A stretch of 64,000 nt of DNA from an uncultured Chloroflexia bacterium (GTDB lineage: Bacteria > Chloroflexota > Limnocylindria > Limnocylindrales > CSP1-4): positions 67,718-131,717 of the forward strand of contig CAVTIN010000003.1 of the NCBI GenBank assembly GCA_963734895.1. Reading direction: 5' to 3'. The notes under the pieces are model-generated. The model saw only the letters and a program-made list of their open reading frames with translations. It was not told the DNA's origin and searched no databases. This document shows positions 4,321 to 60,572 of this stretch, one piece after another. Every line of letters begins with the position of its first letter. Within the stretch, counting starts at the first letter, position 1. Position numbers and translations under genes: made by a program.

Positions 4321-7300
4321 CTACGGGAGGGCCCGCAGCGCGCTCAGCACCGCGTCGCTCACCGCGCCCGGGCCGCCCAGGATGACGATCTTGGCGGGCT
4401 TGAGCCGGGTGAGCTCGGCGGCGATCGCCGGCGGCAGGGCCTTGGGGTCGGTGAGCAGCAGCGGGGCCCCGTCCTTGCCGGCCACGGGAGCGCCGGTGAG
4501 CGCGTCGGGGAACTGGGTGCCGGTGGCGATGTACGCGACCGGCACGTTCGAGCCGAAGCTCGCGGCGCTGATCGCGGCCGAGGTGTCGTACAGGGTCTGG
4601 CCGAACAGGCGGGTGACCGTGCCCGCGTAGTGGCGCAGCGCGCTCAGCACCGCGTCGCTCACCGCGCCCGGGCCGCCCAGGATGACGATCTTGGCGGGCT
4701 TGAGCCGGGTGAGCTCGGCGGCGATCGCCGGCGGCAGGGCCTTGGGGTCGGTGAGCAGCAGCGGGGCCCCGTCCTTGCCGGCCACGGGAGCGCCGGTGAG
4801 CGCGTCGGGGAACTGGGTGCCGGTGGCGATGTACGCGACCGGCACGTTCGAGCCGAAGCTCGCGGCGCTGATCGCGGCCGAGGTGTCGTACAGGGTCTGG
4901 CCGAACAGGCGGGTGACCGTGCCCGCGTAGTGGCGCAGCGCGCTCAGCACCGCGTCGCTCACCGCGCCCGGGCCGCCCAGGATGACGATCTTGGCGGGCT
5001 TGAGCCGGGTGAGCTCGGCGGCGATCGCCGGCGGCAGGGCCTTGGGGTCGGTGAGCAGCAGCGGGGCCCCGTCCTTGCCGGCCACGGGAGCGCCGGTGAG
5101 CGCGTCGGGGAACTGGGTGCCGGTGGCGATGTACGCGACCGGCACGTTCGAGCCGAAGCTCGCGGCGCTGATCGCGGCCGAGGTGTCGTACAGGGTCTGG
5201 CCGAACAGGCGGGTGACGACGAGGTGCTGGACGGTCACCCCGAATGCGGCCACCTGGGCGGGGGACACCGGGCTGACCGACGGCGCCGTGTAGGTGACCG
5301 ATCCGGACTTCCCCACCAACTGGAGCATGTACGTTCCGTCGGCGACAGGCACCCCGGCGACCTTCGCATCCCAAGCGTAGTGGCGGGCGCCCGCGGCTCC
5401 CGCGGTCAACGTGCGCGTGTCCACGAGCGTGCCGTCGGAGCGGTACACGCGCAGCTGGAGGGTGCTCAGAGCAACGGTCGTCTGCCAGTCGAGCTGCACC
5501 GTATCGTGATCACCGTCGCCGTTGGGCGACACGAACCGGCTCCCGGCGTTCGCGACACCCAGGCTGGCGGCCCCGAGACCGTTGAAGCCGAGGCTGCGTA
5601 TCCCTGCGTCAACCGTCGTGGAGTTGGGTGCCCGATACGCGCCGATATAGCCGGAGGGTGTCGCCACGGGACCCGACGCCATCCACACGCCGACCTCCGC
5701 AAACGTCACCGTGCCCCATTCGAGGACCGGTTGCGTGACCTGCCACCAGACGTAGCCGTCGGCCGTGACCGGACCGCCGGTCACGGCGACGATCGTGCCG
5801 GTGTCGACGGTGCCCAGCTTCGCCGCCGACGTGTCTGGGCCGGTTCGGTACGACAGGCCATCGGTCCGCACCTGGCCGAAGCCACCGACCGCCAGCGACG
5901 GGCTGGGGCTCCAGGTCGAGGTGATGTCCCACGCGGACACGTTGCCCTTCGTGTCCCGTGCGCGGGTGCGGAACGCATAGCCATGGCCGGACTGGCCAAG
6001 CCAGGTGTCGGACTCCGCCGTGGTGCCGGAGAGCCAGGCCGTCCACGGACCGCCGTCTTTCGAGACCTGGACGTCGTACGAGGCAACCCCGGACGTGTCC
6101 GAGCCCGCCCAGGAGACCGTGAACCCCTCGTCCCGCTGGGTCGTGCCGAGCATCCGGACGCCGGTGACGGGGCCGGTCACGTCGGTCAGGAACGCGTCCG
6201 AGATGGCCCGGTACAGCTCCGGGTGGCCGCCGTCGTAGCCGAGCGCCCAGATTCCGGCGCCGCGCAGGCCGTACGTGTTCACGAGCTCGTAGCGAAGCCT
6301 CATCGACTCTGCGTCGTCGTAGTAGACCTGCCGCCAGGTCTGTACGCAGCCGTAGGTGGTCGTGCAGTTCGTCCGCTGGTAGGCGAACCACGGCGTCTGC
6401 TCGCGGCTGTCCCAGCGGCGCCCGTACTGGGCCACCAGGTCGACCACGTTCCCGTAGTTCACGGCGGCGCTGTACCCGTACTTGGCACCACTCTGGCTGG
6501 CCGCGTTCACCGCATCGGTCGCCGTCGACCACGCCCGCCCGTACCACGGGAGGCCCAGGATCACCTTCGACGGGCTGACCCGGGCCGTGTAGGAGCGAAT
6601 GGTGTCCGTCAGGTCGTAGGCGGGACCCGACAGCGGATCGATCGAGCCAACGTAGGATGACGATGAGGTCCGATAGTCGTAGCCCATCACGAAGATGGCG
6701 TCGGCCGCGCCCGCGGCGACGGAGGCCTCGATCGGGTAGTTGCCGATCCAGCCCGTGGTGTCGTACGTCAGCTGGTACCCGGGGGCCACCTTGTCGAGCT
6801 CCGTGCGCATCGTCCGCAGCAGCGCGACGAAGTCGTCCTCGTGGCCGCTGACGACCGGCTCGAAGTCGAGGTTGATACCGTCCGCTCCCCGGTCCCGGAC
6901 GGCCGCAACGGCCTGCTGCGCGAGGTTGAGCCGGGCAGCGCTGCTGCCGAGCAGCGCTGCCTGGACGTTTGCCTGGGTCGTCGACCATGCGAACACCGAG
7001 AGGGTGAGCACGACCCGCGTCCCGTGGCTGTGGGCGGCGTTGATGACCGAGGTGAGGCTCGAGCTCGTCCAGCCGCCCCACCCGGTGGTCGTCGAGCCGT
7101 CGCTGTTCTTCTTGAGCAGGTTGCCCGCACTGTTCGCACCCACGGAGAAGTACGCGATCGTCGACAGATCGTCGTAGTTGAGCGTCGACGCCGATCCGGA
7201 CACCTCCCAGTACGGCAGGAAGCCGAACACCTGCCGCCGCAGGCCGGAGGCGGCGGTCGTTTCGGACGTGGCCGTGACGGGGGCGGTCCAGGTGGCGCCG

Positions 7301-44292: not shown

Positions 44293-44336
44293 GTCACGGC
44301 GCGCCTCGTAACGTTCTCCGAACGGAACGGGTCCAG
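44293..44336 (+). promoter_or_regulatory. heptamer-repeat element upstream of paralog P1
   Basis: GTCACGG 44293, GTAACGT 44308, CGAACGG 44319 and GGAACGG 44324, followed by CAGAAT (44334-44339) 9 nt before the ATG. 28 of 39 ungapped positions are identical to the P2 upstream block. Confidence 0.5.
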
Positions 44337-44348
44337 AATGCGGAATCG

Positions 44349-45590
44349 ATGACCAGCTCCGTTCGAAACCGCTCGACGACGCCAGCTTTCCCGACGGCCG
44401 CGGAGACAGGTCGTTCGCTTCCCCTACCCGGCCGGATCATCGTTGTGCTGGTGGCCGCGGGCGCCGTCGTCGTCGGCGCACCCAGCGGTGTCGGGCTGCT
44501 GTGGGCGGTCCCGTACGGGGCCGTGGCGACGATCCTGATCGTCCGGAGACCACGACACGCGATCGGCTGGATCCTGCTCGTGCTGGGATGGATGTTCCCG
44601 CTCGCGTCCGCCACGCTCGATATGACGCCGGCCCAGTTCTCAGGTGGCTCCCTGACACCGCTGACAGCGGTCGCGGGCTGGCTCATCGCCACCGCCGGGT
44701 CCGCAGGGTTCGTGCTCTTTGCGACGCTGATGTTCACCTTTCCCTCCGGGCGCTACCCGGGGGGCCGATGGCGCTTCCTGGCGCCCGCGCTGCTCGCCAT
44801 CGCGTCGGCGACAGTCCTGGTCTCGGCGCTCGCGCCGAGGATCAATGTGGGCTTTCAGGGCAACCAGACGAGCGTGTCCGTCGCCAACCCGTTCGCGATC
44901 ACGCCCGGGGCCGCGATCTGGAACGGGATCCCATACGAGCTGAGCTTCATCGTCCAGATCGCCGTCATGGCGATCGCTGCCATCTCGCTCGCGAACCAAT
45001 TCGGTGGGACCAGTGGGATCGAGCGCCAGCAGCTTCGATGGGTCGCCGCCGCGCTCGGCTTCGTCGTGCTCGCCGTGCTCGGCGGCCTGGCACTCGGCGG
45101 GATCTTCCCGGACCTGAGCTCAACGGGCTTCATCTGGATCCCTGCGATGCTGGCCTTCGCGTCAGTTCCCATCGCGGTGGGCGTCGCGATCATGCGCTAC
45201 CGGCTGTACGAGATCGACCGGATCATCAGCCGGACGCTCGGTTGGACCGTCACCACGATCGTCGTGGCGGCGGCCTTCGGCGGCCTGATCGTTGGTCTGC
45301 AGGCGGCGCTCGCGCCGTACACGAGCGAGAGCACCCTCGCGGTCGCGCTCTCGACGCTCATCGCGGCGGCCCTGTTCGGGCGCGTGCATCGCGGCATCCA
45401 GGCGACCGTGGACCGTCGGTTCAACCGGACCCGGGTGGATGCGCAGCGGGCCCTCGACGCGTTCGGCAGCGGGCTGCGCGACGTGACGGCCCTGGACGCG
45501 GTCCATGCCCGCCTCGAGGACACGATCCGGGCGACGGTCCAGCCGCGGGTCGTCGGCGTCTGGACGCGCGCCGGCGGGCCCGGGGAGTAG
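44349..45590 (+). CDS. paralog P1 of a ~10-TM membrane protein family with a conserved C-terminal RYRLYxIDR / VDRRFNR module
   Basis: Motifs RRPRHAIGWILL, FPSGRYPGGRWR, IERQQLRW, MRYRLYEIDRIISRT and VDRRFNRTRVD. Confidence 0.8.
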   Translation: MTSSVRNRSTTPAFPTAAETGRSLPLPGRIIVVLVAAGAVVVGAPSGVGLLWAVPYGAVATILIVRRPRHAIGWILLVLGWMFPLASATLDMTPAQFSGGSLTPLTAVAGWLIATAGSAGFVLFATLMFTFPSGRYPGGRWRFLAPALLAIASATVLVSALAPRINVGFQGNQTSVSVANPFAITPGAAIWNGIPYELSFIVQIAVMAIAAISLANQFGGTSGIERQQLRWVAAALGFVVLAVLGGLALGGIFPDLSSTGFIWIPAMLAFASVPIAVGVAIMRYRLYEIDRIISRTLGWTVTTIVVAAAFGGLIVGLQAALAPYTSESTLAVALSTLIAAALFGRVHRGIQATVDRRFNRTRVDAQRALDAFGSGLRDVTALDAVHARLEDTIRATVQPRVVGVWTRAGGPGE

Positions 45591-46510: not shown

Positions 46511-49422
46511 CTACCAGGCGACAAGCTTCCAGATCTCCGGCTCCAGCTCGCCGGGGTTCCCACCGACCTCGGCGAAGATCGCCACCGCCTGCTTGAGGTG
46601 CGCCATCGCTTCGTCGGTCCTACCCACGGCGTGAAGCTGGTCCGCGAGGCTGTTCTCGACGGCCGCCTCGAGGTGGCGCTCGCCCGTTCGGCGGCACTCC
46701 TCGAGGGCGGCCTCGAGCAGCGCGATCGCGGCAGCCCGATCGCCGGCGGCTGCCTCGACCAGGGCCAGGGCATTGCGGGCCGCGATCGCCGCCCCTGCAT
46801 CCGGATCCGCCTCCGCCAGGGCGAGACTCTGCCCCAGGGACACCCGCGCGGCGTCCAGATCGCCGGTCTCACGAGCAACCAGCCCCAGAATCCGGTGGGC
46901 GGCGCCGGCACCCGGACCGTCCCCGACCGCCTCGGCGATGCCGAGCGCGCGCGACGCGGCGAGGTGGGCAAGGTCGAGCTCGCCCGCGCGGTGGGCCACG
47001 ACAGCCCGCTCGACGAGCGCCCGCGCGAGAAGATGGGCGCCGGTCGCCGTCGCGCCAAGCTCGAGCGTCGCGACCGCCGCGTCCAGGTGGCTGGCCGCCG
47101 TCGCGAGATCGCCTCGGCGAGCGTGAACCCTCCCGAGCCGGAGCTCGACCCTCGGAAGCTCGTCGTCGGACGTCGCCGCTGCGGCGGCCTCGAGCGCCGC
47201 GATGGCGCCCGCGTAGTCACCCAGCGCCATTCGCACCTCGCCGAGCAGGAGCTGGATCTCGGCGACCTCGGGGTGCCCCAGTGCGATCGCGGTCTCAAGG
47301 TGGGCGGCAGCCTCGCGGTTGGCGAACAGCGACACGGGCCTGGACGCCGGCCTGGCGGAAGGCATCAGCCGCCTCCGCCTCCCGGCCCGCCGCACGCTCG
47401 TGGATCGCGACCTGGACAAGGCGGCCGGGGTCGTCCCGGCCCCCGCCCTCGGCCCGGAGGAGCTCGGCGGTCCGACGATGGAGCAGGCGGCGACGGGCGA
47501 GGCTGGTCGCGTCGTACGCGGCGTCGCGGAGCTTGGCGTGCGCGAAGTCGAAGGCGACCTCCGGAGCCGCCGGGAACCTCGCGGACGATGCCGCGCCGGA
47601 CCAGCTCCTCGAGCGCCGTCACGGTCTCGTCCTCGGAGCGTCCGCTCGCTCCTCGGACGAGCGGCAGGTCGAACGAGCGGCCGATCACGGCGGCGGCCGA
47701 CAGCACCTGTCCGGCCGTCTCGCTGACCGTTGCGAGGCGCTCCCGCAACAGCGCCCTCACGCTTCGGGTGGGACCTTCAACGGTGCTCGTGCCGGCAGCG
47801 AGCGCTTCCACGACGAACAGCGGCAGGCCCTCGCTCTCCTCGAGCAACGCGTCCGCCGCCATCGATGGCCCGCCCATCGTCGACGCCGCGGCAACCAGCC
47901 GCTCGACGTCGTCGCCATCGAGCCGCCGGAGGGGGACGGAAACCGCCGACGGCAGGGCGTCGACGGTCGCCGCGAACGCCGAGGCAAGATCGTCGAGATC
48001 CTCGGGCCGCCACGTGAGCAGGAGCAGCAGTGACCGCGATCCTCGAGACGGCGAGCGAGCCAGGCGAGCGCCTCGCGCGACGCGTCGTCCGCCCACTGGA
48101 TGTCCTCCACCGTGATCAGGCCCACCACCGGACCCGCCACCAGGGCGGCCAGCGCGCCGGCGATCGCCTCGAGAAGGCGAGCGCGTGCGGCCGGCCCGTC
48201 CTCCGCCACACCCCGGACGTCCCCTGCACCTCGCGGATCAGAGAGCTCGGCCGGCAGTGGCACCAGACGCCCGAGCTCGTCGAGGGTGTTGGGCGGCAGC
48301 CGTCGAAGACGTTCGATCGCATCCGGATGGCTGAGCCCGACACGGAGCAGCCCGACGATCACGCCGTAGGCGATGCCCGTCTCGGAGGCGAACGATCGCG
48401 CCACGATCACCGCGCCGCCGTGCCGCGCTCACCTCGGCGCCGAGATCTTCGGCGAGCCTCGACTTGCCGATGCCTGCCTCACCGGTGACGTATGCGACCC
48501 GCCCATCGGGGGCGGCGTCGCGGTGCGTATCGCGCAGCACGGTCATCTCGCGGGCTCGCCCGACCAGTGGCAGGCGGCCCGGGGCCGACGGCGCGGGCAC
48601 GAGGCGCGCGCCCACGGGCGGCGGGAGCTCGCCCGGGTCGCCGGTCCGGGCGGCGGTCCGGACACGCTCGTCGCGGATCGCCTCGTACAGCGCTGTCGTC
48701 TCGGCGAGCGGCGTGACGCCCAGCTCGCGCTCCAGACCCGCGACGCACGCACGGTATTGGCGGATGGCGCCGGCCCGGTCCCCGGATCGGGCGAGGAGAA
48801 GCATCAGCCGGCGCTGTGCAGGTTCGTCGAGCGAGTCGAGCTCCAGTCGCCGGGTCGCCGCGGCCACGGCCGCCGGGAGGTCGCCCTCCGCCTCGGCGGA
48901 GCTGGCGAGCCGGTCCAGCACGCGGGCAACGGTCCGTTCCACCGCAACCGCCCGCGTCGCCCGCCAGTCATCGAAATCCGGGCTGTCGCGGAGGGAGAAC
49001 CCGGACAGGAACGGGCCCCGAGCGGCCGAGGACGCCTCACGGAGGGGGGCGCTCGACGTTTCGGCGTCCGCTGCCTCAACGATCGCGAGGTCCATCCACG
49101 TCCCGGTGGCATCGAGCGCGACCGTGGACCGGTCCACCCGCAGCCATCGGTCACCGAGCGCCGACCGCAGCACGGACAAGGTGCGCCGGAGCGCCCCGCG
49201 GGCGGACTCGTCGTCGGACTCGGGCCAGAGCATGGCGGCCAGCGCCTCGCGGGCGAACGGCCGGCGCTCGGTAGCCAGCAGCGCAAGGATCGCGAGGGCC
49301 TTGCGCGTGTCCACGACGAGCGGCGCGCCATCCACCCGCACCTCGAGCGGTCCGAGCACGCGGATCTCGAGCGTGTCGCCCTGCGCGGCCTGGGGAGGGG
49401 GCGGAGCGGCGGGTCGGGACAT
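46511..49422 (-). pseudogene. AfsR/SARP-family regulator (OmpR-type wHTH + BTAD + P-loop NTPase + TPR) broken by four single-nt frameshifts
   Basis: The pieces lie in four frames. (1) LEIRVLGPLEV..BTAD..GEAGIGKSRLAEDLG. (2) VIVARSFASE..VEDIQWADDASREALAWLARRL. (3) LLLLLTWRPEDLDD..LEELVRRGIVREV. (4) VAFDFAHAKLRDAAY.. then the TPR tail ..FANREAAAHLETAIALG..KLVAW. 2912 nt minus a net 2 gives 970 codons. Confidence 0.85.
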
Positions 49423-49424
49423 CA

Positions 49425-49485
49425 CGCGTAACGGTACCGCGGCGTCACGGGATCTCGTAACGTTTCGGGAACGGTTTCGTCCCAG
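49425..49485. promoter_or_regulatory. heptamer-repeat element in the divergent SARP/P2 intergenic region
   Basis: GTAACGG 49428, GTCACGG 49444, GTAACGT 49457 and GGAACGG 49468. The last two are 11 nt apart. CAGCAT (49483-49488) lies 8 nt before the P2 ATG. Confidence 0.5.
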
Positions 49486-49496
49486 CATGCGGTGCC

Positions 49497-50705
49497 ATGA
49501 TCGCGTCCCAGCAACTGCCCGGCCGCGGCCGCCTGGTCTCCAGGGCCGCTCCAGGAAGCCCCTGGATACGGGTTACCGTCGCAATCGCCGGTCTGCTCGC
49601 CGTGGGCGGCACGGTCGCCCGCTTGTCGGGCGATCCGACGGGCTGGCACCTGTCCCTCGTGTTCCTCGCCACATCGCTCAGCTACCTGGTCGTGGGCGCA
49701 CTGATCGTGGAGCGACGGCAGGGCAACGCGGTCGGGCCGCTCGTCCTGGCGCTCGGGCTGCTGCTGGTCGGGTACGTGACCCTCGATGCCTACATCCGCC
49801 AGCCCGCGGGCGCCTTGGCCGCCGCACATGCCGCGCTCGTCGTGAGCCTGACCGACGGCCCGATGTTCTTCCTGGTGGCGATGCTGTTCCTGGCGTTTCC
49901 GGACGGCCACCTGCCGAGCAGCCGCTGGCGGACCCTGGTCGCCCTCGATGGCGCGATGGCCGCGGCCGTCTTCCTGGGCGCGTTGCTGCGGCCCGGTCGC
50001 TACCCGTTCTATACGTGGCTCGAGAACCCGTTCAACCCGCCGATGACGGTCCTGACCGAGGTCTGGGAGCTCACCTACGGGTTGACGGTCGTGGGTGTCG
50101 CTGCGGCGGCGCTTTCGCTCGTCGGGCGCTGGCGACGCGGTGACCTCGTTGAGCGCGCCCAGCTCAAGTGGGTGGCGGGGGCCGCGACGCTGGCGGCTGC
50201 CGCGATGATCGGCTACGGCGCCGGAGCGGGCCCCAGCGACTATTCGGATGCCGGCGACTTCGCCGTGGGCCTGTCGCTCGGCCTCTTTCCCGTCGCCATC
50301 GGGATCGCGGTCCTGCGGTATCGCCTGTACGAGATCGACCGCCTGATCAGCCGAACCCTGGCCTGGGCCCTCGTGACGGCGATCCTGGTGGGGCTGTTTG
50401 CGATCGTGGTCGTCGGCCTCCAGGCGCTTCTTGCCGGGGCGACGCAGGGCGACACGCTGGCGGTCGCGGCATCGACCCTGCTCGCCGCTGCCCTGTTCCA
50501 GCCGCTGCGCGCTCGAGTCCAGCATGCCGTCGACCGGCGCTTCAACCGCTCACGGATCGACGCAGAGCGGACGGTGGCGGAGTTCTCCGATCGCCTCCGC
50601 GACGAGATCGACCTGGACCGGCTGCACGGCGCCGTCATCGCAACCGCTCGCACCGCGGTTCACCCGGCCGGCGCCGGCCTGTGGCTTCGCCGGGAGGCCG
50701 AATGA
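49497..50705 (+). CDS. paralog P2 of the ~10-TM membrane protein family
   Basis: Motifs FPDGHLPSSRWR, VERAQLKW, LRYRLYEIDRLISRT, FQPLRARVQHAVDRRFNRSRID and LWLR. Confidence 0.8.
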   Translation: MIASQQLPGRGRLVSRAAPGSPWIRVTVAIAGLLAVGGTVARLSGDPTGWHLSLVFLATSLSYLVVGALIVERRQGNAVGPLVLALGLLLVGYVTLDAYIRQPAGALAAAHAALVVSLTDGPMFFLVAMLFLAFPDGHLPSSRWRTLVALDGAMAAAVFLGALLRPGRYPFYTWLENPFNPPMTVLTEVWELTYGLTVVGVAAAALSLVGRWRRGDLVERAQLKWVAGAATLAAAAMIGYGAGAGPSDYSDAGDFAVGLSLGLFPVAIGIAVLRYRLYEIDRLISRTLAWALVTAILVGLFAIVVVGLQALLAGATQGDTLAVAASTLLAAALFQPLRARVQHAVDRRFNRSRIDAERTVAEFSDRLRDEIDLDRLHGAVIATARTAVHPAGAGLWLRREAE

Positions 50706-51046
50706 TGGCGACCACCACCGGGCCGGTGCGCAAGGAGCTCGGCATAGGCGCGACGGCGCACGAGACGCTGCCCCGAGCGGTGGCCGTCATCGTCTACGTG
50801 GCACCGGTCGCGGTGCTCATGCTCCTCCTGGGTGGTGCGTGGGCGGGCGGCGCGCTGGCCCGGGACCTGCTGGTCCCGAACCTTGCCTGGGTCATCACGT
50901 CGTGCGGTGCCGACGCGTTCGGTGCCGGGTTGCGCGAGCAGGTCGATCTGGGCGCCGTATCGAAGAGCACCCTCGCGACGGTTGCGCAGGTGATTGAGCC
51001 CTCGGGTGTCGCGCTGTGGCTTCGTTCCGGACGGGGGACACCGTGA
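50702..51046 (+). CDS. mini-paralog: single-TM protein carrying only the family's C-terminal ~45-aa tail
   Basis: Its ATG overlaps the P2 stop (ATGA). The tail DAFGAGLREQVDLGAVSKSTLATVAQVIEPSGVALWLR aligns with DAFAERLRDQVELGEIHGDIHQTVHSTMRPTHVGMWLR of P6. Confidence 0.5.
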   Translation: MMATTTGPVRKELGIGATAHETLPRAVAVIVYVAPVAVLMLLLGGAWAGGALARDLLVPNLAWVITSCGADAFGAGLREQVDLGAVSKSTLATVAQVIEPSGVALWLRSGRGTP

Positions 51047-52269
51047 TCTCGGGCGTGGCGCGCTCCCCCCGACCCAGGCTGGTCGCTGCAGCCAGCATCG
51101 TGTTCACGGGCACGCTGTGCGTGATCGCCCTTGGCCTGCTCGCGGCCACATGGTCGGTGGAGGTCCCGGGCACGTGGTCCGTCCGCGGATTTCCGATCGC
51201 GATCGCGGGCACCTGCGTGGCAATCGGGGCCATCGTCGTGGTCCGGGTGCAGGGAAACCCGATCGGGTGGCTGTTCCTGGCCGCCGCAATCCTGTCGGCG
51301 ATCGAGGGCGCCTGCGATCAGTACGCGACGCTGGCCCTCATCGCCGAGCCGGGCGCCCATGCCGGAGGAGAGGTCGCAGCCTGGGTCGCCGGCTGGATCT
51401 GGATCCCGGCCATCGCGCTGGTGACCGTGTTCCTGCCGCTGGTGTTCCCGGACGGCCGCCTGCTGAACTCGCGTTGGCGTCCGATCGTTTGGCTCGATGG
51501 CGGGGTGGTGGCGCTCGCGACACTGGGTGCCGCCGTGCTGCCGGGACCACTCGACAACGCCGCCTATCTGTCCAATCCATTCTCCGTCGACATCGGCATC
51601 CGGCCCGAGCTGCGGTGGATCGCCTACCTGCCGCTCATCGTCGCCATCTTCATCGGCGCCAGCGCCCTCGTGCTCCGGTTCCGCCGGTCGACCGGGGAGA
51701 GCCGCCAGCAGCTCAAGTGGCTTGCGTTCAGCGTCGCGGTCTGCGGCCTTGTGTTCTGGGCCGTCCCACTGGGCAAGCTCGGCGCCCTTCCACCGGGCGG
51801 CGCCAAGCTCACCGAGATCGTGGTCACGGCGGGCATCCTGGGCATCCCGATCTCGGCCGGTGTCGCGGTCCTCCGCTACCGGCTGTGGGATATCGACCGG
51901 ATCGTCAGCCGCACCATCAGCTACCTGATCATCAGCGCCGTGCTCGCGATCATGTTCGCGGTGACCGTTGTCGGGCTGCAGGAGGTGTTGAGCCCGCTGA
52001 CGGGCCAGAGCACGGTCTCGGTCGCCGCGGCGACCCTGGTCGCCTTCACCCTGTTCCAGCCGTTGCGCCATCGCGTCCAGGCGGCGGTCGACCGCAGGTT
52101 CAATCGGGCGCACATCGATGCCCAGCGCGTCCTTGACGCGTTTGCGGCCGGGCTGCGCGACGATGCGGCCCTCGACACCCTCAGCGCACACCTCGAGACG
52201 GTCGTCGCACGCTCGATGCAGCCCCGGTCGGTCGCCGTCTGGACCCGCGAGGGAGGGACCGCGCGATGA
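51043..52269 (+). CDS. paralog P3 of the ~10-TM membrane protein family
   Basis: GTG 51043 overlaps the upstream stop (GTGA). Motifs GNPIGWLFL, FPDGRLLNSRWR, ESRQQLKW, LRYRLWDIDRIVSRT and VDRRFNRAHID. Confidence 0.8.
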   Translation: MISGVARSPRPRLVAAASIVFTGTLCVIALGLLAATWSVEVPGTWSVRGFPIAIAGTCVAIGAIVVVRVQGNPIGWLFLAAAILSAIEGACDQYATLALIAEPGAHAGGEVAAWVAGWIWIPAIALVTVFLPLVFPDGRLLNSRWRPIVWLDGGVVALATLGAAVLPGPLDNAAYLSNPFSVDIGIRPELRWIAYLPLIVAIFIGASALVLRFRRSTGESRQQLKWLAFSVAVCGLVFWAVPLGKLGALPPGGAKLTEIVVTAGILGIPISAGVAVLRYRLWDIDRIVSRTISYLIISAVLAIMFAVTVVGLQEVLSPLTGQSTVSVAAATLVAFTLFQPLRHRVQAAVDRRFNRAHIDAQRVLDAFAAGLRDDAALDTLSAHLETVVARSMQPRSVAVWTREGGTAR

Positions 52270-52322
52270 GGGCGTTCCGTCCGTTGACGGTGTCGCGCCC
52301 TTGGACTGCCCGGATGGCGATC

Positions 52323-52384
52323 ATCTCAGAGATCGCCGTTGTGGCCGGACGGGACTGGCAGATCTCAGAGATCGCCGTTGTGGC
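52323..52384. promoter_or_regulatory. two copies of a 23-nt element, each with a central palindrome, 39 nt apart, in the P3-P4 gap
   Basis: ATCTCAGAGATCGCCGTTGTGGC occurs at 52323-52345 and 52362-52384. The second copy reads GATCTCAGAGATC, with perfect 6-bp inverted arms. Confidence 0.45.
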
Positions 52385-52459
52385 AGCCGGGACGGTCGCC
52401 CATGCCTTGGGCCCGAACGGAGCTGTGGTCTGGATCCGGCCAACTCGAGGAGGGACTTG

Positions 52460-53650
52460 ATGAGGCTCGGGCGGTGGCGGGTCATCCCGTATCTCATCCT
52501 GGCAGCGCTCGTCCTTGCGCCCTCCGTCTGGGCTGGTCAGGACTGGAGTGGCTGGTTGATCGTGGGCTCGTTCGCAGCCGTGGGCCTGGTCCTGCTCTGG
52601 CAGCGGCCACGAGAGGTCGTCGGCTGGCTCCTCCTGGGCATCGCGGTCGCCTTCTCCGCGCTCGGGGTCAGTCTCCCGGGCTCCGCGTCCCAGGTCGTCG
52701 ACGGCCACGCTGACACGGGAGTCACCATCTACGCCTGGTTGAGCGCGTGGAGCGCGAGCCTCTTCTTCGGCGAGTTCGTCGCGCTGGCGACGCTGTTCCC
52801 GAGCGGGCGGTTCTCGGCGGGGCGGGTCGGCCTGGCAGGGCGGATCGCGGTGGCCATCCCGCTCGGCTTCAGCGCCGTTCTGGCGTTCGCACCGAGCTGG
52901 CAGATGACCTTCACCGACGGGTCGACGGCGCGGGTGCTCCTGCCGTTCGCGGTCATGCCCGACTGGCCCGGCTGGCCGGTGCTGGACAACCTCGTCTACA
53001 TCGGCGTTCTCGCGGCGCTGGTCATCGCCGTCGGGACTCTGATCGTCCGGTTCCGGCGGACGCGCGGCCCGGAGCGCGAGCAGTACAAGTGGCTGCTCGC
53101 CGCGCTCGCGGCGACCCTGGCGGCAGTGATCTTCGCGTTCGCCGTGATCGTCCTTGTCGACGCCAACGGCACTTGGATGTGGTGGCCGGCAGTGCTCGCC
53201 TACCCGACCATCCCGGCCGCGATCGGGATCGCGATCCGCCGCTATCACCTATACGACATCGACCGGATCGTCAGCCGGTCCGTCTCGTACCTCGCGGTCA
53301 CCGGGCTCCTGGCGGCCGTGTTCGGTGGCCTGGTGGTCGCGCTGCAAGCACTGCTGTCGGGCATCACCCAGGGCGGCACCCTTGCCGTGGCAGCTTCCAC
53401 GCTGGCCGCGTTTGCGCTGTTCCAGCCGCTGCGACGGCGAGTCCAGCTGGTGGTCGACCGCCGGTTCGACCGAGCGCGCGTCGACGCCCAGACGACGGTG
53501 GACGCCTTTGCCGAGCACCTGCGCGACGAGCTGGACCTCGCGACCCTGCACGACTCCCTCGTGGCGACGACCCGTGCGGCCATGCGGCCGGCCAGCACCT
53601 CGCTGTGGCTGCGCAACGTTTCGACATCGCAGGTTGCCGAGGTTCCGTAA
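52460..53650 (+). CDS. paralog P4 of the ~10-TM membrane protein family
   Basis: ATG 52460 is preceded by GAGGAGGGA. Motifs PREVVGWLLL, FPSGRFSAGR, PEREQYKW, IRRYHLYDIDRIVSRS and VDRRFDRARVD. Confidence 0.8.
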   Translation: MRLGRWRVIPYLILAALVLAPSVWAGQDWSGWLIVGSFAAVGLVLLWQRPREVVGWLLLGIAVAFSALGVSLPGSASQVVDGHADTGVTIYAWLSAWSASLFFGEFVALATLFPSGRFSAGRVGLAGRIAVAIPLGFSAVLAFAPSWQMTFTDGSTARVLLPFAVMPDWPGWPVLDNLVYIGVLAALVIAVGTLIVRFRRTRGPEREQYKWLLAALAATLAAVIFAFAVIVLVDANGTWMWWPAVLAYPTIPAAIGIAIRRYHLYDIDRIVSRSVSYLAVTGLLAAVFGGLVVALQALLSGITQGGTLAVAASTLAAFALFQPLRRRVQLVVDRRFDRARVDAQTTVDAFAEHLRDELDLATLHDSLVATTRAAMRPASTSLWLRNVSTSQVAEVP

Positions 53651-53779
53651 CGATGTCCGACGCTCGACCACTACTCACCGGACGAAGTCGACCGGGACAG
53701 CGTCGCGAGCCCAACGTGGAGGTTGGCGGGCGGTCACCGAAGCATCATCGCGGCCTCCGACGACGCACGACCGTGGCCT

Positions 53780-53800
53780 CCGTAACGATTTCGGGACGCG
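53780..53800 (+). promoter_or_regulatory. GTAACG-type heptamer pair upstream of the small secreted protein gene
   Basis: CCGTAACGATTTCGGGACGCG contains GTAACGA 53782 and GGGACGC 53793, 11 nt apart. It is near-identical to the P2 core CGTAACGTTTCGGGAACGG. Confidence 0.4.
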
Positions 53801-53861
53801 CGACCGGTTGAATTTGGCCACGCAGCCCGCCCCCTGGAGCTGCCGCAGTTGGAGGCCACCG

Positions 53862-54429: not shown

Positions 54430-54495
54430 ATGCCAATGAACGAGGCGCCTGTGGCGCGCCAGCCGAAGCAGCGGCTCAACCGCAGCCGACGATGA
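54430..54495 (+). CDS. possible 21-codon leader ORF translationally coupled to P5
   Basis: AGGAGG (54417-54422) lies 7 nt before ATG 54430. The peptide is MPMNEAPVARQPKQRLNRSRR. Its TGA overlaps the P5 ATG (ATGA at 54492-54495). Confidence 0.3.
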   Translation: MPMNEAPVARQPKQRLNRSRR

Positions 54496-55709
54496 CCGGC
54501 GGTCTCTCCGGGACAACGTGGCGACGGCCTGGGGTCTGGGCTGCCGGCGTCCTGCTGGCGAGCACCGTCGGAATGGTGTGCTTCGCGTTCGTCCTCGCGG
54601 TCCTGCCAGGTACCGAGCAGCTGGCCGGTCGACCTGGCGAGACTAACCCGCTCGGGCCGGTCAGTGCCCCGGTCGTGCTGGGCGTGCTCCTCACGTCGCC
54701 TGCCGTTGGCGCGATCCTCGCTGTTCGCCAGCCATCCAACCCGATCGGCTGGCTGTTCCTCCTGATCGGGTTCGGCTTCTCCATCTACGTCTTCTCCTGG
54801 GGGTATGTCGGTCGGAGCGTCGGGCTGGGTGCCGACCTGCCCGGCTATCGCCTGGTCGACTGGGTTGCTTCCTGGTCGATCACCGCTGCAGTCGGGCTGG
54901 CCGTGATCTGGGTCCCTATGTTGTTCCCGGATGGTCACCTGCCAGGCTCGCACTGGCGCCCTGTCGCCTGGGTGGCCGCCATCGGTACCGCCAGTCAGGT
55001 CGCGGTCGAGGCGCTGACGACCAACGGGATCCTGCCCAACCCGATTGCCGCCGACGGTCCCGTGACCGATGCCCTCAAGGCGCTGGGCGTCTTCTTCCTC
55101 GTCGGGGTCCTCGTGGCGATCGCGGCAGTGATCGTTCGTTACCGGCGATCCCGCGGTCCCGAGCGCCAGCAGCTCAAGTGGTTCCTGGCGGCCGCCGGCT
55201 ACATGGCGATCGTGCTCCCCATCGCCGGAGGGACCGGCAATGAGCTGGCCTTCTACCTCTTCATGCTCGGGATGATCGCGATCCCCATCGCCATCGGGAT
55301 CGCGATCCTGCGATACCGGCTGTACGACATCGACCGCCTGATCAGCCGCACCATCGGCTGGGCGCTGGTGACCGGGATCCTGGCCGCCGTGTTCGTGGGC
55401 GTCGTGCTCGCCCTCCAGTCGCTGTTGGCCGGGTTCACCCAGGGCGAGACCCTCGCGGTCGCGGCATCCACGCTGGCCGCGTTCGCGCTGTTCCAGCCGC
55501 TGCGGCGGCGGATCCAGGTTGCGGTCGATCGGCGGTTCGACCGGGCCCGGTACGACGGGCAGCTCACGGTCGATGCGTTTGCGGAGCGGCTGCGGGACGA
55601 GGTGGAGTTCGCCGAGATCGATCGGGACATCCATCGCGTGATCGACGATGCCGTGCGCCCGACCCATGTCGGGATGTGGCTGCGCGAGCGCCAGGGAGCA
55701 GGCCGGTGA
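54492..55709 (+). CDS. paralog P5 of the ~10-TM membrane protein family
   Basis: Motifs SNPIGWLFL, FPDGHLPGSHWR, PERQQLKW, LRYRLYDIDRLISRT and VDRRFDRARYD. The start is uncertain: ATG 54492, ATG 54384 or TTG 54366. Confidence 0.8.
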   Translation: MTGGLSGTTWRRPGVWAAGVLLASTVGMVCFAFVLAVLPGTEQLAGRPGETNPLGPVSAPVVLGVLLTSPAVGAILAVRQPSNPIGWLFLLIGFGFSIYVFSWGYVGRSVGLGADLPGYRLVDWVASWSITAAVGLAVIWVPMLFPDGHLPGSHWRPVAWVAAIGTASQVAVEALTTNGILPNPIAADGPVTDALKALGVFFLVGVLVAIAAVIVRYRRSRGPERQQLKWFLAAAGYMAIVLPIAGGTGNELAFYLFMLGMIAIPIAIGIAILRYRLYDIDRLISRTIGWALVTGILAAVFVGVVLALQSLLAGFTQGETLAVAASTLAAFALFQPLRRRIQVAVDRRFDRARYDGQLTVDAFAERLRDEVEFAEIDRDIHRVIDDAVRPTHVGMWLRERQGAGR

Positions 55710-56893
55710 CGGCAGCCCGCGTCACCCGCCCCGAACCTGCCGTGCCGGCCCGCCGCCGGCCGACCACCTGGCTCGCCCTCGTCCTGCTGGCCATCGCCCT
55801 GGGCATGGTGGGCTTCATGTTCGCCTCGGCCATGCTCCCCGGGCACGAGCGCCTGTCGACCGCGGTGGAGGAGGGGCTGGACGTCATCCCGATCCTCGCG
55901 TCATTGGCGGCGGTCCTTTCGCTTGCCGGCGTCGGGTGCGTGCTGGCGGCGCTTCGTCCACGCAACCCCATCGGCTGGGTCTTGCTGGTCGGGGGCGCGA
56001 CCTTGATGCTCAGCGATTTCACGACGAGCTACGTGGAGCGCAGCACCGTGGTCGAACCCCTTCCCGGTTACCGGCTCCTGGAGACCTTGTCGCCCTTGTT
56101 CGCGTCACTCGCCATCCCACTCCTGACCGTCTGGCTTCCGCTCCTGTTTCCGGATGGGCGGCTGCCAGGGCCGCGTTGGCGGGTCGTGGGCGCGATCGCC
56201 ACGATCTACACGGTCGCTGCCGTCGCGCTGACGCTGGTGCCGGCGCCCGAGCTCGTGGGGGAGGCGATCAGCCCGATCGCAGGGGGATTGATCGCGGCCG
56301 CCCTCGTCGCGCTCATCGTGCGCTTCCGGCGCACGCATGGGGCGGAGCGCCAGCAGGTGAAGTGGTTTCTGGCGGCGGTCGCGCTGCTCGCCGCGTCGAT
56401 GCTCGTGCTGGCAGCAACGCACAACGAGTGGGGGTGGGCGCTCATGCTGCTCTCCCTCGCGTTCCTGCCCATCGCCATCGGCATCGCCGTCCTCCGCTAC
56501 CGGCTGTACGACATCGACCGGCTGGTCAGCCGCACGATCGGGTGGGCGCTGGTGACCGGGATCCTGGCTGCCGTGTTCGTGGGTGTCGTGATCGGCCTCC
56601 AGGCGCTGCTCTCGAGCTTCACCCAGGGTGAGACGCTCGCGGTGGCCGCGTCCACGCTGGTCGCATTCGCCCTGTTCCAGCCGCTGCGACGGCGGGTCCA
56701 GGTTGCGGTCGATCGGCGGTTCGACCGGGCGCGGTACGACGGGCAGCGCACCGTTGATGCGTTTGCCGAGCGGCTGCGCGATCAAGTGGAGCTCGGCGAG
56801 ATCCACGGAGACATCCATCAGACAGTGCACTCGACCATGCGGCCGACACACGTCGGCATGTGGCTTCGGCGCGCCGGCGACCAAGCCCCCTAG
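55706..56893 (+). CDS. paralog P6 of the ~10-TM membrane protein family
   Basis: GTG 55706 overlaps the P5 stop (GTGA). Motifs RNPIGWVLL, FPDGRLPGPRWR, AERQQVKW, LRYRLYDIDRLVSRT and VDRRFDRARYD. Confidence 0.8.
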   Translation: MTAARVTRPEPAVPARRRPTTWLALVLLAIALGMVGFMFASAMLPGHERLSTAVEEGLDVIPILASLAAVLSLAGVGCVLAALRPRNPIGWVLLVGGATLMLSDFTTSYVERSTVVEPLPGYRLLETLSPLFASLAIPLLTVWLPLLFPDGRLPGPRWRVVGAIATIYTVAAVALTLVPAPELVGEAISPIAGGLIAAALVALIVRFRRTHGAERQQVKWFLAAVALLAASMLVLAATHNEWGWALMLLSLAFLPIAIGIAVLRYRLYDIDRLVSRTIGWALVTGILAAVFVGVVIGLQALLSSFTQGETLAVAASTLVAFALFQPLRRRVQVAVDRRFDRARYDGQRTVDAFAERLRDQVELGEIHGDIHQTVHSTMRPTHVGMWLRRAGDQAP

Positions 56894-57375: not shown

Positions 57376-57433
57376 GTTACGTGACGATATCGGAGCGTCA
57401 CCATTGTTCGTAACGATATCCGGACGCTTCCAG
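57376..57433 (+). promoter_or_regulatory. GTAACG-type heptamer cluster upstream of the partner-switching operon
   Basis: GTTACGT 57376 and GTGACGA 57381 come first. GTAACGA 57410 and CGGACGC 57421 follow, 11 nt apart. CAGCTT (57431-57436) lies 12 nt before ATG 57449. Confidence 0.4.
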
Positions 57434-57448
57434 CTTGAGGATCAGGTC

Positions 57449-59099
57449 ATGACAGCACTGACTCGTCCATTCCGGCGCCTCCTTCGCCGGCCCGCGCCAG
57501 ACGGCCGCCGGCTTCGCCGTCGCGCCGCCCGCCGAATGCCTGCCGAGCAGCCCGGCGTGTCCATCGACATCCCGGAGACCGACCCGCTGTTCGCCTACCT
57601 GCAGTCGGCACCCGGGCCCGGTGGATCTCTTGCGCCTGGAGCTGGCGTCGCCGGCCCTCACCGAGCTCCGCGAGGCCGGCGTGGCGCTTGTCGTGCCGCT
57701 GGTGACCCAGGGTGAGCTGATCGGCACCCTCAACCTCGGACCACGGCTGTCCGAGCAGGAATACTCCACAGACGACCGCCGGCTCCTGGCCACGCTCGCC
57801 GCCCAGGCCGCGCCCGCCATCCGCGTCGCCCAGCTCGTACGCGAGCAGGCCGCCGAGGCCGCGGAGCGCGAGCGGTACCAGCAGGAGCTCAAGGTCGCGC
57901 AGCTGATCCAGCAGCAGTTTCTGCCGCGCGAGCTGCCCAACTTGCCCGAGTGGCAGATCGCCGCGTACTACGGCCCGGCGCGTGTTGTCGGCGGCGACTT
58001 CTACGACTTCATCGACCTCGGGGACGGCAGGATCGGCGTCGTGGTCGGCGACGTGACCGACAAGGGCGTGCCGGCGGCGCTGGTCATGGCCCGAACCCAC
58101 TCCATTCTGCGCGCCGAGGCGCCGCGCCTGGTCGAGCCCGGCAAGGTGCTCGCTCGCGCCAACGAGCTGCTGGTGCCGGAGATGCCGGCCCGCATGTTCG
58201 TGACCTGCCTTTACGGCGTCCTGGAGCCCGCGACCGGCCGCTTCGTGTTCGCGAACGCTGGCCACAACCTGCCCTACGTCCGGACACCGGATGGCGTCAT
58301 CGAGCTTCGGGCAACCGGCCTGCCGCTCGGCCTCATGCCGGGCATCGAGTACGAGGAGACCGAGGGCTCCGTGGGCCAGGGCGATGCGATGCTGCTCTAC
58401 TCGGATGGCCTCGTAGAGCAGCACGGGCCGGGCCGCGAGATGTACGGCTTCCCGCGCCTGCGCAGCGCGATGGAAGGTGCCGATGCCGGGAGCGAGCTCC
58501 TGGACCGGCTGCTCGAGGAGCTGAAGGCGTTCCAGGGTTCGGAAGTGGAGCAGGAAGACGACATCACGCTCGTCACCCTCCGACGGTCGGCGGGTGTGAC
58601 CGAGGGGGCGTGGTCCGAGGTTCGCCCCGAGGTCGAGGTCACCCGTGACGACGAGCCGTCCGAGGTCCTCGCTGCAGAGCCCCTGCTCACGTTCACGATC
58701 CAGGGCGCGATCGGCAACGAGCGCGCGGCCATGCAACGGGTGGCCGACGTGGTCGCGCCGCTGGGGCTGGAGCCTGCGCGACTCGAGCGCCTCAAGACCG
58801 CCGTCGCCGAGACCGTGATGAACGCGATCGAGTACGGATCGCAGGGCGATCCTGAGGTTCCCGTGGACGTGCGCGTGGACGCCGATGACGCGGCGATCCG
58901 CATCCGGGTCACGGACCGGGCCCTGTCCGGACCGGTGCCCGACGTCGAGATGCCTGACCTGAACGCCAAGCTCGAGGGTCTCCAGAAGCCCCGTGGCTGG
59001 GGCCTGTTCCTGATCCGCCACATGGTCGACGGCATGGACGTGCACGTCGCCGATGGCCTGCAGACCGTCACCCTCACCCTCGCCCGGGACGGGCGCTGA
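57449..59099 (+). CDS. GAF + PP2C (SpoIIE/RsbU-type) phosphatase fused to an RsbW-like HATPase anti-sigma-kinase domain; 1-nt insertion near 57611-57620
   Basis: ATG 57449 (MTALTRPF..DPLFAYLQSAPGP) shifts frame into VDLLRLELASPAL.. PP2C motifs GGDFYDF, GDVTDKGVPAA, YSDGLVE and DDITLV are present. The C-terminal ERLKTAVAETVMNAIEYG..GWGLFLIRHMVD matches an RsbW-type domain. 1651 nt minus 1 gives 550 codons. Confidence 0.8.
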
Positions 59100-59114
59100 C
59101 CGATGGAGGCAGCC

Positions 59115-59477
59115 ATGAACGAGCAGCGGCTCGACATCGAGGTCGTCACATCGACCGCCGGCGAGGCCCGGCTCGCGATGCGCGGCGACGTGGACATCGC
59201 GGCGGACGAGGCGCTTGCCACCGCGTACGCGACCGCGGCGGCAGGGGGCGCCACGCGCGTGGTCCTCGACTTCAGGAGCGTCGACTACATCAACTCGACC
59301 GGCATTGCGCTGATCGTCCGGCTGCTCGCAGAGGCCCGCCGCGATCACCGAGAGGTGATTGCCGAGGGGCTCACCGACCACTACCGGGAGATCTTCCGGA
59401 TCACCCGGCTGTCCGATTACCTCACCATCGCCGACGGCGTCTCGGCAGGCAGCGTTCCAGAGGAGGGCAACCGATGA
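59115..59477 (+). CDS. STAS-domain anti-sigma-factor antagonist (RsbV-like) 1
   Basis: The VVLDFRSVDYINSTGIALIVRLL core has the conserved Ser in DYINSTG. GGAGG precedes ATG 59115. ATG 59103 is also possible. Confidence 0.8.
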   Translation: MNEQRLDIEVVTSTAGEARLAMRGDVDIAADEALATAYATAAAGGATRVVLDFRSVDYINSTGIALIVRLLAEARRDHREVIAEGLTDHYREIFRITRLSDYLTIADGVSAGSVPEEGNR

Positions 59478-59818
59478 CCGACACCACGATCGACGTCAGC
59501 CAGCATGGCGATGCCGCGATCCTCCACGTCCACGGTGAGATCACCGGCGGCAGCGAGCCCGCACTGATGGGCGCCTACGGCCAGGCCGGCGACGCGCGAT
59601 CCATCGTGCTGGACTTCGGCGATCTCGAGTACATGAACAGCGGTGGGATCGGGCTGCTGGTGACGCTCCTCGTGCGCACGAAGCGGGCCGGCCAGAAGCT
59701 GCTCGCCGTTGGCCTGACCGAGCACTACCGCCAGATCCTGGCGCTGACCCGTCTCGACGAGGCGATCTCAATCCACGACGACGAGCCTTCGGCCCTGGCC
59801 GCAGCCGCGTCCGCCTGA
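59474..59818 (+). CDS. STAS-domain anti-sigma-factor antagonist (RsbV-like) 2
   Basis: IVLDFGDLEYMNSGGIGLLVTLL core. Its ATG overlaps the upstream stop (ATGA) and is preceded by GGAGGG. Confidence 0.8.
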   Translation: MTDTTIDVSQHGDAAILHVHGEITGGSEPALMGAYGQAGDARSIVLDFGDLEYMNSGGIGLLVTLLVRTKRAGQKLLAVGLTEHYRQILALTRLDEAISIHDDEPSALAAAASA

Positions 59819-59831
59819 ACGGAGCACTCCC

Positions 59832-60572
59832 ATGACCACCGAGCCTCGCACCCCCCGCGATAAGGAATCCTGGGCCCGCCCCGTGGACCGGCTGTCCACG
59901 ACCGCGAAGACCGGTGGCATGGACACCGTCACCGGCAAGCGCGTCTCCGGCCCCATCCAGGGCTTCGGCCAGATGTGGCAGAAGACGTTCAAGGTGAGGC
60001 TCGACGGCGTCGACCTCGACCCGGAGGCCGTCGTCGCGCACTGGAAGGCCGGGTTCCCCACCTTCTGGCCCAAGGGCGCAGCGTTCTACGCCCCGCTGGC
60101 GGGGATCGCCCCCGGCGAGGTCGCCCTGCTGGAGGTTGCGCCGGTCCCGGGCTCACCGGTCAAGATGTCGACCGGGGTCATGGTCATCTACGCTGACCGT
60201 GAATCGTTCACGTTCATGACACCAGAGGGTCACGCGCTGTCCGCATGGATCACCTTCTCCGCCTTCCGCGACGGCGACACGACGGTCGCCCAGGCCCAGG
60301 CGCTCGAGCGGACGAGCGACCCGTTCATCGAGCTGACCTACATGTTCGGCGCGAACCGGGCGAACGACCGGTTCTGGGAACGGACGTTGGAGAACCTGGC
60401 GGCCTCGCTGGGTGTCGAGGCTCCGGTCGTCGAAGCGCAGAAGGTGTGCGTGGACAAGCATCGACAATGGCGGTACGTCCGCAACCTGCGCCGCAGCGCC
60501 GCGGTCAACATGGCGGTGGGCACGGTCACGGCTCCCGTCCGCTGGGTGCGGCGCCGCCGGGTCGCAGGCTGA
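59832..60572 (+). CDS. hypothetical protein in the partner-switching operon
   Basis: A 246-aa ORF with normal composition (GFGQMWQKTFKVRL..FTFMTPEGHALSAWITFSAF). I cannot name the family with confidence. Confidence 0.55.
   Translation: MTTEPRTPRDKESWARPVDRLSTTAKTGGMDTVTGKRVSGPIQGFGQMWQKTFKVRLDGVDLDPEAVVAHWKAGFPTFWPKGAAFYAPLAGIAPGEVALLEVAPVPGSPVKMSTGVMVIYADRESFTFMTPEGHALSAWITFSAFRDGDTTVAQAQALERTSDPFIELTYMFGANRANDRFWERTLENLAASLGVEAPVVEAQKVCVDKHRQWRYVRNLRRSAAVNMAVGTVTAPVRWVRRRRVAG

Follow-up and report, generated by a model that had tools for sequence, protein, structure and literature searches.

The window analysed here is a stretch of 64,000 nucleotides (64 kb) from contig CAVTIN010000003.1, which belongs to a metagenome-assembled genome (MAG) labelled 'uncultured Chloroflexia bacterium'. 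It contains a large gene for a regulator of the SARP (Streptomyces antibiotic regulatory protein) type and, divergently oriented, an operon that begins with P2, one of six paralogous genes for membrane proteins. The start codon of the regulator gene on the minus strand (CAT at 49420-49422) and the ATG of P2 at 49497 are separated by a gap of only 74 bp. This gap and the pair of 11-bp direct repeats within it, DR1 and DR2, are the main subject of this analysis. The coordinates of the features are collected in Table 1.

Table 1. Features of the regulator/P2 gap and related sites in the 64-kb window; heptamers are numbered in their order along the plus strand, as in an earlier note on this DNA
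Feature	Position	Strand	Remarks
P1 operator-promoter	44307-44339	+	DR1 CGTAACGTTCT, DR2 CCGAACGGAAC, 8 nt, CAGAAT, 9 nt, ATG 44349
Large AfsR-like SARP gene; winged-helix DNA-binding, BTAD, AAA_16/NOD and TPR domains	46511-49422	-	Pfam, EmbR match, alignment with L001
Distal conserved element CGTAACGGTAC	49427-49437	+	includes CGTAACGG (49427-49434); 29-nt offset from DR1
Heptamer 1, GTAACGG	49428-49434	+	distal
Predicted -10 hexamer of the regulator promoter, TACCGT	49431-49436	-	8 nt before ATG 49422; overlaps heptamer 1
Heptamer 2, GTCACGG	49444-49450	+	not a conserved box; 13 nt from box 1, unphased
DR1, upstream 11-bp direct repeat, CGTAACGTTTC	49456-49466	+	holds heptamer 3
Heptamer 3, GTAACGT (box 1)	49457-49463	+	inside DR1
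DR2, downstream 11-bp direct repeat, GGGAACGGTTT	49467-49477	+	holds heptamer 4
Heptamer 4, GGAACGG (box 2)	49468-49474	+	inside DR2
Weak fifth heptamer-like copy, GTCCCAG	49479-49485	+	
Predicted -10 hexamer of the P2 operon promoter, CAGCAT	49483-49488	+	invariant A2, T6 and position
P2 operon	49497-53650	+	P2 49497-50705, remnant 50703-51046, P3 ~51043-52269, P4 52461-53650
Candidate fourth site (weaker)	53781-53813	+	CGTAACGATTT, CGGGACGCGCG, 11-nt phased; relaxed scan
Third site	57409-57442	+	CGTAACGATAT, CCGGACGCTTC, 9-nt spacer, GAGGAT, 6 nt, ATG 57449; relaxed scan

The N-terminal 274 amino acids of the regulator align over residues 17-254 with EmbR (PDB 2FEZ; E 1.2e-10), the alignment covering the DNA-binding and BTAD domains. 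The Pfam BTAD domain (PF03704) was identified at residues 116-250, directly after the DNA-binding domain, with an E value of 2.8e-16 and above the gathering score. These matches bear out the earlier assignment of the gene to the SARP type. Pfam detected the BTAD, AAA_16, and TPR domains of the window regulator on open reading frame (ORF) pieces split across four frames, and the same three domains are present in the intact ortholog of 968 amino acids encoded by the related MAG locus L001. The NCBIfam AfsR model was matched far under its cutoff (55 versus 1430 bits). The start at 49422 coincides with the gene calls in L001 and in a second related locus, L002. The window has a further in-frame ATG upstream, at 49488 (CAGCAT read on the opposite strand), and in L001 the equivalent ATG falls outside the frame; the gap is therefore taken as non-coding and 49422 as the regulator start.

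The earlier note, made from the letters alone, had described the gap as a cluster of four heptamers of the form GKMACGK with 11-nt phasing. All four heptamers, the hexamer CAGCAT, and the length of the gap were found exactly where it placed them. The start-to-start distances, with the fifth copy included, are 16, 13, 11, and 11 nt, and the last real pair (49457 and 49468, exactly 11 nt apart) is the only helically phased one. The claimed phasing thus holds for this proximal pair, but four phased copies overstate what is present: the conserved repeat pair, CGTAACGtT-N2-cGgAACG, includes two boxes, not four. GTCCCAG does occur 11 nt further on, at 49479, but shows no conservation in the motif-anchored alignment described below.

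The degenerate heptamer is a weak descriptor of the motif. It is not enriched in the window (127 matches versus 105.6 ± 9.7 expected), and a composite pattern was used in its place. When the window was simulated 200 times with a first-order Markov model, no run produced four same-strand heptamers within 50 nt; the highest number was three, seen in 24 runs. The composite pattern AACG-N7-DACG-N10-A-NNN-T has exactly two matches in the 64 kb, versus 0.03 expected, and these lie directly 5' of P1 and P2. The upstream regions of these two genes align without gaps from CTCGTAACGTT to ATGCGG and have a common layout: GTAACGT, 4 nt, nGAACGG, 8 nt, CAGnAT, 8-9 nt, ATG. The scan with GKMACGK also recovered the same boxes in the same order 5' of P1 (44293, 44308, and 44324). 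A relaxed scan revealed a third site 5' of a gene for a GAF-PP2C(SpoIIE)-HATPase_c_2 protein with NCBIfam phosphatase and anti-sigma-kinase matches. The orthologous L002 site, at 8652, stands before the orthologous GAF-PP2C gene and has a spacer of 8 nt. The AACG cores are 11 nt apart at all three sites (49459/49470 for P2, 44310/44321 for P1, and 57412/57423 for the third site). No match to Rfam covariance models at the gathering score was obtained across the whole window, and a leader or riboswitch reading of the gap was discarded.

The same divergent arrangement of SARP and P genes, with a gap of 72-74 bp, is present in three MAG loci labelled 'uncultured Chloroflexia bacterium' (L001, L002, and L003), all of which keep CGTAACGTT-N2-nGAACGG-N8-CAGCAT-CCGGTGCC-ATG. 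With the MAG contigs L092-L094 included, the common pattern is CGTAACGTT-N2-nGAACG-N9-cAnnnT-N8-ATG, and the spacer between the box and the regulator is randomised.

To obtain an unbiased sample, 80 metagenome loci were collected using the SARP N-terminal domain alone as query; 69 of these are non-redundant. Their SARP homologs span 36-83% identity. Of the 69 non-redundant loci, 55 have the pattern AACG-N7-(A/G/T)ACG on the same strand as the divergent gene and within 260 nt 5' of the regulator; these include every sampled locus of at least 58% identity and many at 39-50%. Next to the regulator the pattern occurs at a rate of 3.3e-3 per nt, and in the remainder of these loci at 5.5e-5 per nt, which corresponds to a 59-fold enrichment; the opposite orientation was seen in four cases. 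The neighbouring genes vary. In L005, from Acidimicrobiia (43% identity), the motif lies between the SARP homolog and a lipoprotein gene; in L072 and L091 it precedes alpha/beta-hydrolase-like genes and in L075 a FAD-enzyme-like gene, these labels being drawn from N-terminal sequences without a family search. As judged from this comparison, the motif travels with the regulator and not with the P genes. Extra copies precede other nearby genes in L002 (three promoters in 13 kb), L028, L032, L037, L056, L072, and L073.

In a motif-anchored alignment of 54 unique sequences, DR1 forms the most conserved columns (consensus atcCCGTAACGtT). DR2 is also rich in information (ggaACG), and its core, (A/G/T)ACG, always follows that of DR1 at 11 nt. 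The conserved portion of each repeat comprises its first 8-9 bp, and the spacer columns carry practically zero information. Exactly 8 nt past heptamer 4 or its equivalent stands a hexamer with an invariant A at position 2 and an invariant T at position 6 (CAGCAT, GAGGAT, CAGGAT, TATACT, TATAAT, and others). In most loci of at least 58% identity a start codon follows the hexamer at 6-8 nt; L031, L037, and L040 have none at that position. The more distant groups keep the module of box and -10 hexamer and add a leader with a Shine-Dalgarno sequence.

The architecture agrees with that published for SARP promoters, in which direct repeats recur at 11 or 22 bp and a distance of 8 bp separates the 3' repeat from the -10 element (PMC10936776). 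The afs box bound by AfsR is 22 bp long and extends from -40 to -19; two AfsR protomers occupy it side by side, make contacts along the first 8 bp of either 11-bp repeat, and take the place of -35 recognition (PMC10936776). In the window, heptamer 4 is likewise followed by 8 nt and then by CAGCAT. We infer that two protomers of the adjacent large SARP bind side by side on CGTAACGTTTC and GGGAACGGTTT. Counting the T of CAGCAT as -7 would put these repeats at about -39 to -18 in the P2 promoter, the place of a -35 element. The bound dimer would then substitute for -35 recognition and recruit the RNA polymerase holoenzyme with the primary sigma factor, as is the case for AfsR. The transcript is predicted to start at the P2 ATG or within 2-3 nt of it and to read through the P2-P3-P4 genes. 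The same module of box and -10 hexamer would drive P1 and the gene for the GAF-PP2C-anti-sigma-kinase fusion.

The P2 mRNA had also been proposed to be leaderless or nearly so, and the present data support this. CAGCAT begins 14 nt before the P2 ATG, and the 8 nt between them leave no room for a Shine-Dalgarno sequence. A hexamer NANNNT located 12-14 nt before a start codon that lacks a Shine-Dalgarno sequence corresponds, apart from its first base (C instead of T), to the TANNNT motif at about -12 used as a signal for calling leaderless genes, including those of Chloroflexi (PMC3160421). The invariant A and T of the hexamer and the start codon 6-8 nt later in related loci point in the same direction.

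Taken together, these features suggest, with a probability of about 0.75, that the 74-bp gap is a compact back-to-back promoter region in which SARP-bound repeats activate the P2 operon. The proposal that it serves as the operator/promoter linking the regulator to the paralogous genes is thereby supported, both by the published SARP geometry and by the preservation of the module in orthologous, paralogous, and distant SARP-adjacent promoters. On comparative grounds, the repeat pair is a real, well-supported, and conventional cis-element: a predicted new SARP-box promoter with a new consensus and in a new host lineage.

The regulator is probably transcribed from a divergent leaderless promoter of its own. 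On the minus strand, the distal heptamer at 49428 reads as TACCGT, 8 nt before the regulator ATG, and for this reason it is probably the -10 element of that promoter and not an activator box. TACCGT, TATCGT, or TACGGT occurs at a fixed position 6-9 nt before the SARP start codon at nearly all loci of at least 58% identity (L031 is the exception) and in the group with 47-49% identity. A distance of 18 nt separates this hexamer from the reverse complement of box 1. L024 has lost the AACG core but retains TANNNT. Since the CG inside the regulator hexamer and the following TACG are conserved as well, the distal element may have a second role as an autoregulatory half-site. Autoregulation is also possible because DR1 overlaps the -35 region of the regulator promoter, where the centre of the box would be at about -42.5. 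GTCACGG (49444) is degenerate or absent in L001, L002, L003, L014, and L016; the region 5' of P1 has a copy at 44293, where the distance to box 1 is 15 nt. Thus, of the single operator of four heptamers proposed initially, the boxes at 49457 and 49468 stand, the heptamer at 49428 is better read as a -10 element, and those at 49444 and 49479 are unconserved.

Several observations weigh against SARP-dependent activation through these repeats. The match of the regulator to Pfam Trans_reg_C (residues 39-92) is sub-threshold (E 0.0075, 16.8 bits). The first base of the -10 hexamer is C or G, not T, and the 8-nt gap between this hexamer and the ATG places the canonical start site 2 nt before the ATG, not on it. 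The distal CGTAACG copy keeps a fixed offset of 29 nt from DR1, which is off-phase, and a conserved third repeat was not found in the anchored alignment. The sampled loci are phylogenetically related, so their counts are not independent, and the link to the regulator is one of guilt by association. Finally, the regulator ORF in the window is broken by four frameshifts; if these were real, the boxes would now be orphaned unless a paralogous SARP acts on them.

Relative to the L001 ortholog, the frameshifts correspond to insertions at about 48421 (+1), 48039 (+2), 47576 (+1), and 47334 (+1). After their removal all 968 codons are open and dN/dS, the ratio of non-synonymous to synonymous substitution rates, is 0.08-0.35, in keeping with purifying selection; the disruption is therefore either very recent or an artefact. 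L092-L094, MAG contigs from the ENA accession series to which L001 and L002 belong, have similarly fragmented SARP and P genes. The GAF-PP2C gene of the window also contains one frameshift (at about 57615, G to GG), and P1-P4 are intact. The fragmentation in L092-L094 and the frameshift in the GAF-PP2C gene favour consensus indel errors, and the regulator frameshifts are more likely errors of assembly than the marks of a pseudogene. A map of the window by frame-specific G+C content at third codon positions (GC3) was too coarse for counting frameshifts, and gene fragmentation in L092-L094 was more informative.

The divergence between the window and L001 over 46511-50705 is mosaic: synonymous divergence (dS) is 0.6-0.9 for SARP codons 1-615 and about 0.2 for codons 616-968 and P2. 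This suggests recombination or a chimeric consensus over the N-terminal two-thirds of the regulator.

Winged-helix proteins of the OmpR/PhoB class in general use tandem repeats of about 11 bp at the -35 position. The repeats could accordingly be bound by a different member of this class, for example a two-component response regulator encoded elsewhere, the SARP gene being merely a co-regulated target. Besides the class-generic geometry, this explanation would fit intact boxes next to a frameshifted regulator ORF. It would also fit an Anaerolineaceae MAG locus, L011, which has the motif and no SARP homolog in the 8 kb examined. It accounts less well for the presence of the motif next to SARP homologs of 36-83% identity in 55 of 69 loci with varied neighbours, and no response-regulator gene was found among the gene calls for five related loci. 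Moreover, the distance of 8 bp to the -10 element is a SARP-specific rule (PMC10936776), and the variant of the box co-varies with residues of the SARP DNA-binding domain. GTAACG boxes are paired with DTRKA...ARGALRRTLS in that domain, and GCAACG boxes, which occur in L070, L072, L075, and L091, with (D/E)R(H/R)KA...RRAL. This co-variation, which involves one clade and is confounded by phylogeny, is suggestive of candidate specificity determinants. On balance, binding by another OmpR/PhoB-type protein appears unlikely.

AAC-rich -35 elements are typical of promoters for extracytoplasmic function (ECF) sigma factors. GTAAC or GGAAC could be read as the -35 element of such a promoter (GGAAC/GTAAC-N16-17-CGTC), and the window does contain GTAAC (49457-49461), 16 nt, and CGTC (49478-49481), as does L001; a partner-switching module is encoded in the same cluster. 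However, CGTC is unconserved: the corresponding alignment columns (48-55) carry almost zero information, and L003, L017, and P1 have no CGT at this place. By contrast, the sigma-70-type hexamer that lies 8 nt past box 2 has an invariant A and an invariant T. A single -35 element also fails to account for two equally conserved AACG cores 11 nt apart, and no ECF sigma gene was noted among the gene calls for the five related loci. The ECF reading is very improbable and was rejected, as its putative -10 element is not conserved.

It is scarcely credible that the heptamer cluster arose by chance or is a functionless relic of a duplication of the P1/P2 promoter. The degenerate heptamer was defined post hoc and lacks window-wide enrichment, and the paralogous P1 and P2 could have upstream DNA of common ancestry. 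The P1 and P2 proteins, however, are only about 37% identical, and neutral upstream DNA would therefore have decayed. The boxes are invariant in orthologs with randomised intervening spacers, the repeat pair is enriched 59-fold next to SARP genes, and none of the simulations placed four copies in 50 nt.

A regulator start at ATG 49488, with the heptamers encoding an N-terminal extension of 22 amino acids, has a negligible probability and was rejected: the ORF list gives 48238-49488 as one open frame, the frame is open in L002 too, and the gene caller extended the L093 SARP across the motif, but the ATGs in L001 are 64 nt apart and hence out of frame, length differences among orthologs are not multiples of three, the same CAGNAT-ATGCGG block stands 5' of P1, where there is no divergent regulator, and both L001 and L002 have gene calls that begin at the equivalent of 49422.

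Of the characterised systems, AfsR, a large SARP of the STAND class, and the afs box of the afsS promoter from Streptomyces coelicolor resemble the SARP promoter proposed here in several respects. The order of domains is the same (OmpR-type DNA-binding domain, BTAD, NOD/AAA ATPase, and TPR), with the domains split over frames in the window. The afs box also consists of two 11-bp direct repeats, each conserved in the first 8-9 bp, with the centre of the box near -29, and a suboptimal -10 element follows its 3' repeat at 8 bp, with no recognisable -35 (PMC10936776). The differences concern the box itself, which is CGTAACGnT/nGRACG here, and the score of the AfsR model mentioned above. As hosts, uncultured MAGs labelled Chloroflexia take the place of Streptomyces, and relatives occur in Acidimicrobiia. 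The predicted targets are orphan membrane-protein arrays and a partner-switching gene instead of antibiotic-pathway genes. The target mRNA is predicted to be leaderless, and its promoter is placed back to back with the predicted leaderless promoter of the regulator. Operators of small SARPs such as ActII-ORF4 and DnrI (TCGAGXX) have another consensus and frequently three repeats, versus two here, and the regulator in the window is predicted to be a large one with NOD and TPR. EmbR of Mycobacterium tuberculosis, the sole solved structure obtained by the sequence search, shares the DNA-binding and BTAD domains but displays low identity and has, in place of NOD and TPR, an FHA domain at its C terminus. 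The TANNNT promoters of leaderless genes in Actinobacteria, Deinococcus-Thermus, and Chloroflexi also have a -10-like hexamer 12-14 nt before the start and no Shine-Dalgarno sequence (PMC3160421). The promoters studied here differ from them in the first base of the hexamer (C or G) and in that they appear to be activator-dependent.

A text search of a library of papers yielded none that links SARPs with Chloroflexi or with a GTAACG box. To our knowledge, SARPs have been studied almost only as activators of antibiotic clusters in Streptomyces. The present comparison defines, at the level of sequence, a candidate operator for a SARP subfamily from soil bacteria labelled Chloroflexia and from Acidimicrobiia, namely CGTAACGnT-N2-nGRACG followed by 8 bp and the -10 element. 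Its predicted targets are the six paralogous membrane-protein genes and the partner-switching phosphatase/kinase gene. The AfsR-type placement of the box 8 bp from the -10 element would thereby extend to these lineages, on predicted leaderless bidirectional promoters. This extends known biology and does not represent a new mechanism. In practice, the consensus allows MAGs to be searched for SARP regulons, and it supplies a defined DNA probe for biochemistry.

More tentatively, and with somewhat less than an even chance of being correct, these promoters may belong to a widely conserved and hitherto undescribed SARP regulon in soil MAGs of Chloroflexota and Actinomycetota. An AfsR-like STAND regulator acting on a GTAACG-N5-GRACG box would co-activate arrays of orphan 7TM-like 'sensors without kinase', the GAF-PP2C/anti-sigma-kinase gene, and possibly a secreted protein, from back-to-back leaderless promoters at which one dimer serves both directions, activating the target and autoregulating the regulator gene. 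If true, such a regulon would move SARPs beyond the control of antibiotics in actinomycetes into a general membrane-signalling circuit.

The six P paralogs of the window, revealed by tblastn with P2, lie within 44349-45590, 49497-53650, and 54430-56893. They encode multi-helix membrane proteins of about 400 amino acids with the invariant motifs RYRLYEIDR and DRRFNR. Searches of this family against Pfam and NCBIfam gave no match, and some of its homologs carry PF16927 (HisKA_7TM). An AlphaFold2 model (pLDDT 82.9) is a multi-helix bundle, for which Foldseek found weak matches in PDB resembling seven-transmembrane (7TM) proteins and G-protein-coupled receptors (E at least 0.03). In the P2 operon, the first two junctions overlap by start and stop codons (ATGA and GTGA), and P4 follows after a spacer of 191 nt. 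The remnant P ORF (114 amino acids) consists of an N-terminal transmembrane segment joined to the C-terminal '...LWLR' tail of the family and therefore carries an internal deletion.

The candidate fourth site lies 48 nt before a gene for a secreted protein of 139 amino acids (ATG 53862), with GGAGG as the ribosome-binding site of this gene. Where the -10 hexamer would be expected, the site has TTGAAT, without the A at position 2. Another box-like pair, CCGTAACGATGTCCGACGC at 53645-53663, has a spacing of 10 nt, overlaps the stop codon of P4, and lacks a -10-like hexamer at the usual distance. The spacer between P3 and P4 contains a perfect 23-nt direct repeat, ATCTCAGAGATCGCCGTTGTGGC, at 52323-52345 and 52362-52384, 39 nt apart. 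This repeat may act as a further operator or as an element of an internal promoter.

The partner-switching module 3' of the P array is syntenic between the window (57449-60572) and L002 (8688-11865). It comprises the GAF-PP2C-anti-sigma-kinase fusion, two STAS proteins, and a protein of 246 amino acids.

Among nine loci retrieved by a pattern scan of a genome collection, L004, L006, L009, and L010 were discarded as chance matches, two of them located inside a conserved coding region. In L011, positions 960-1100 contain five nAACGn/CACG cores spaced by 10-14 nt, which end in a canonical DR1-DR2 pair with CAGGAT; a 31-nt leader containing a ribosome-binding site comes after this module.

Two further arrays were detected in the window, at 4334-5233 and 8058-8957. 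Each contains three tandem copies of 300 bp that are 95-100% identical within and between the arrays, which are 3.7 kb apart. They could represent a very recent duplication inside minus-strand genes or an artefact of long-read assembly.

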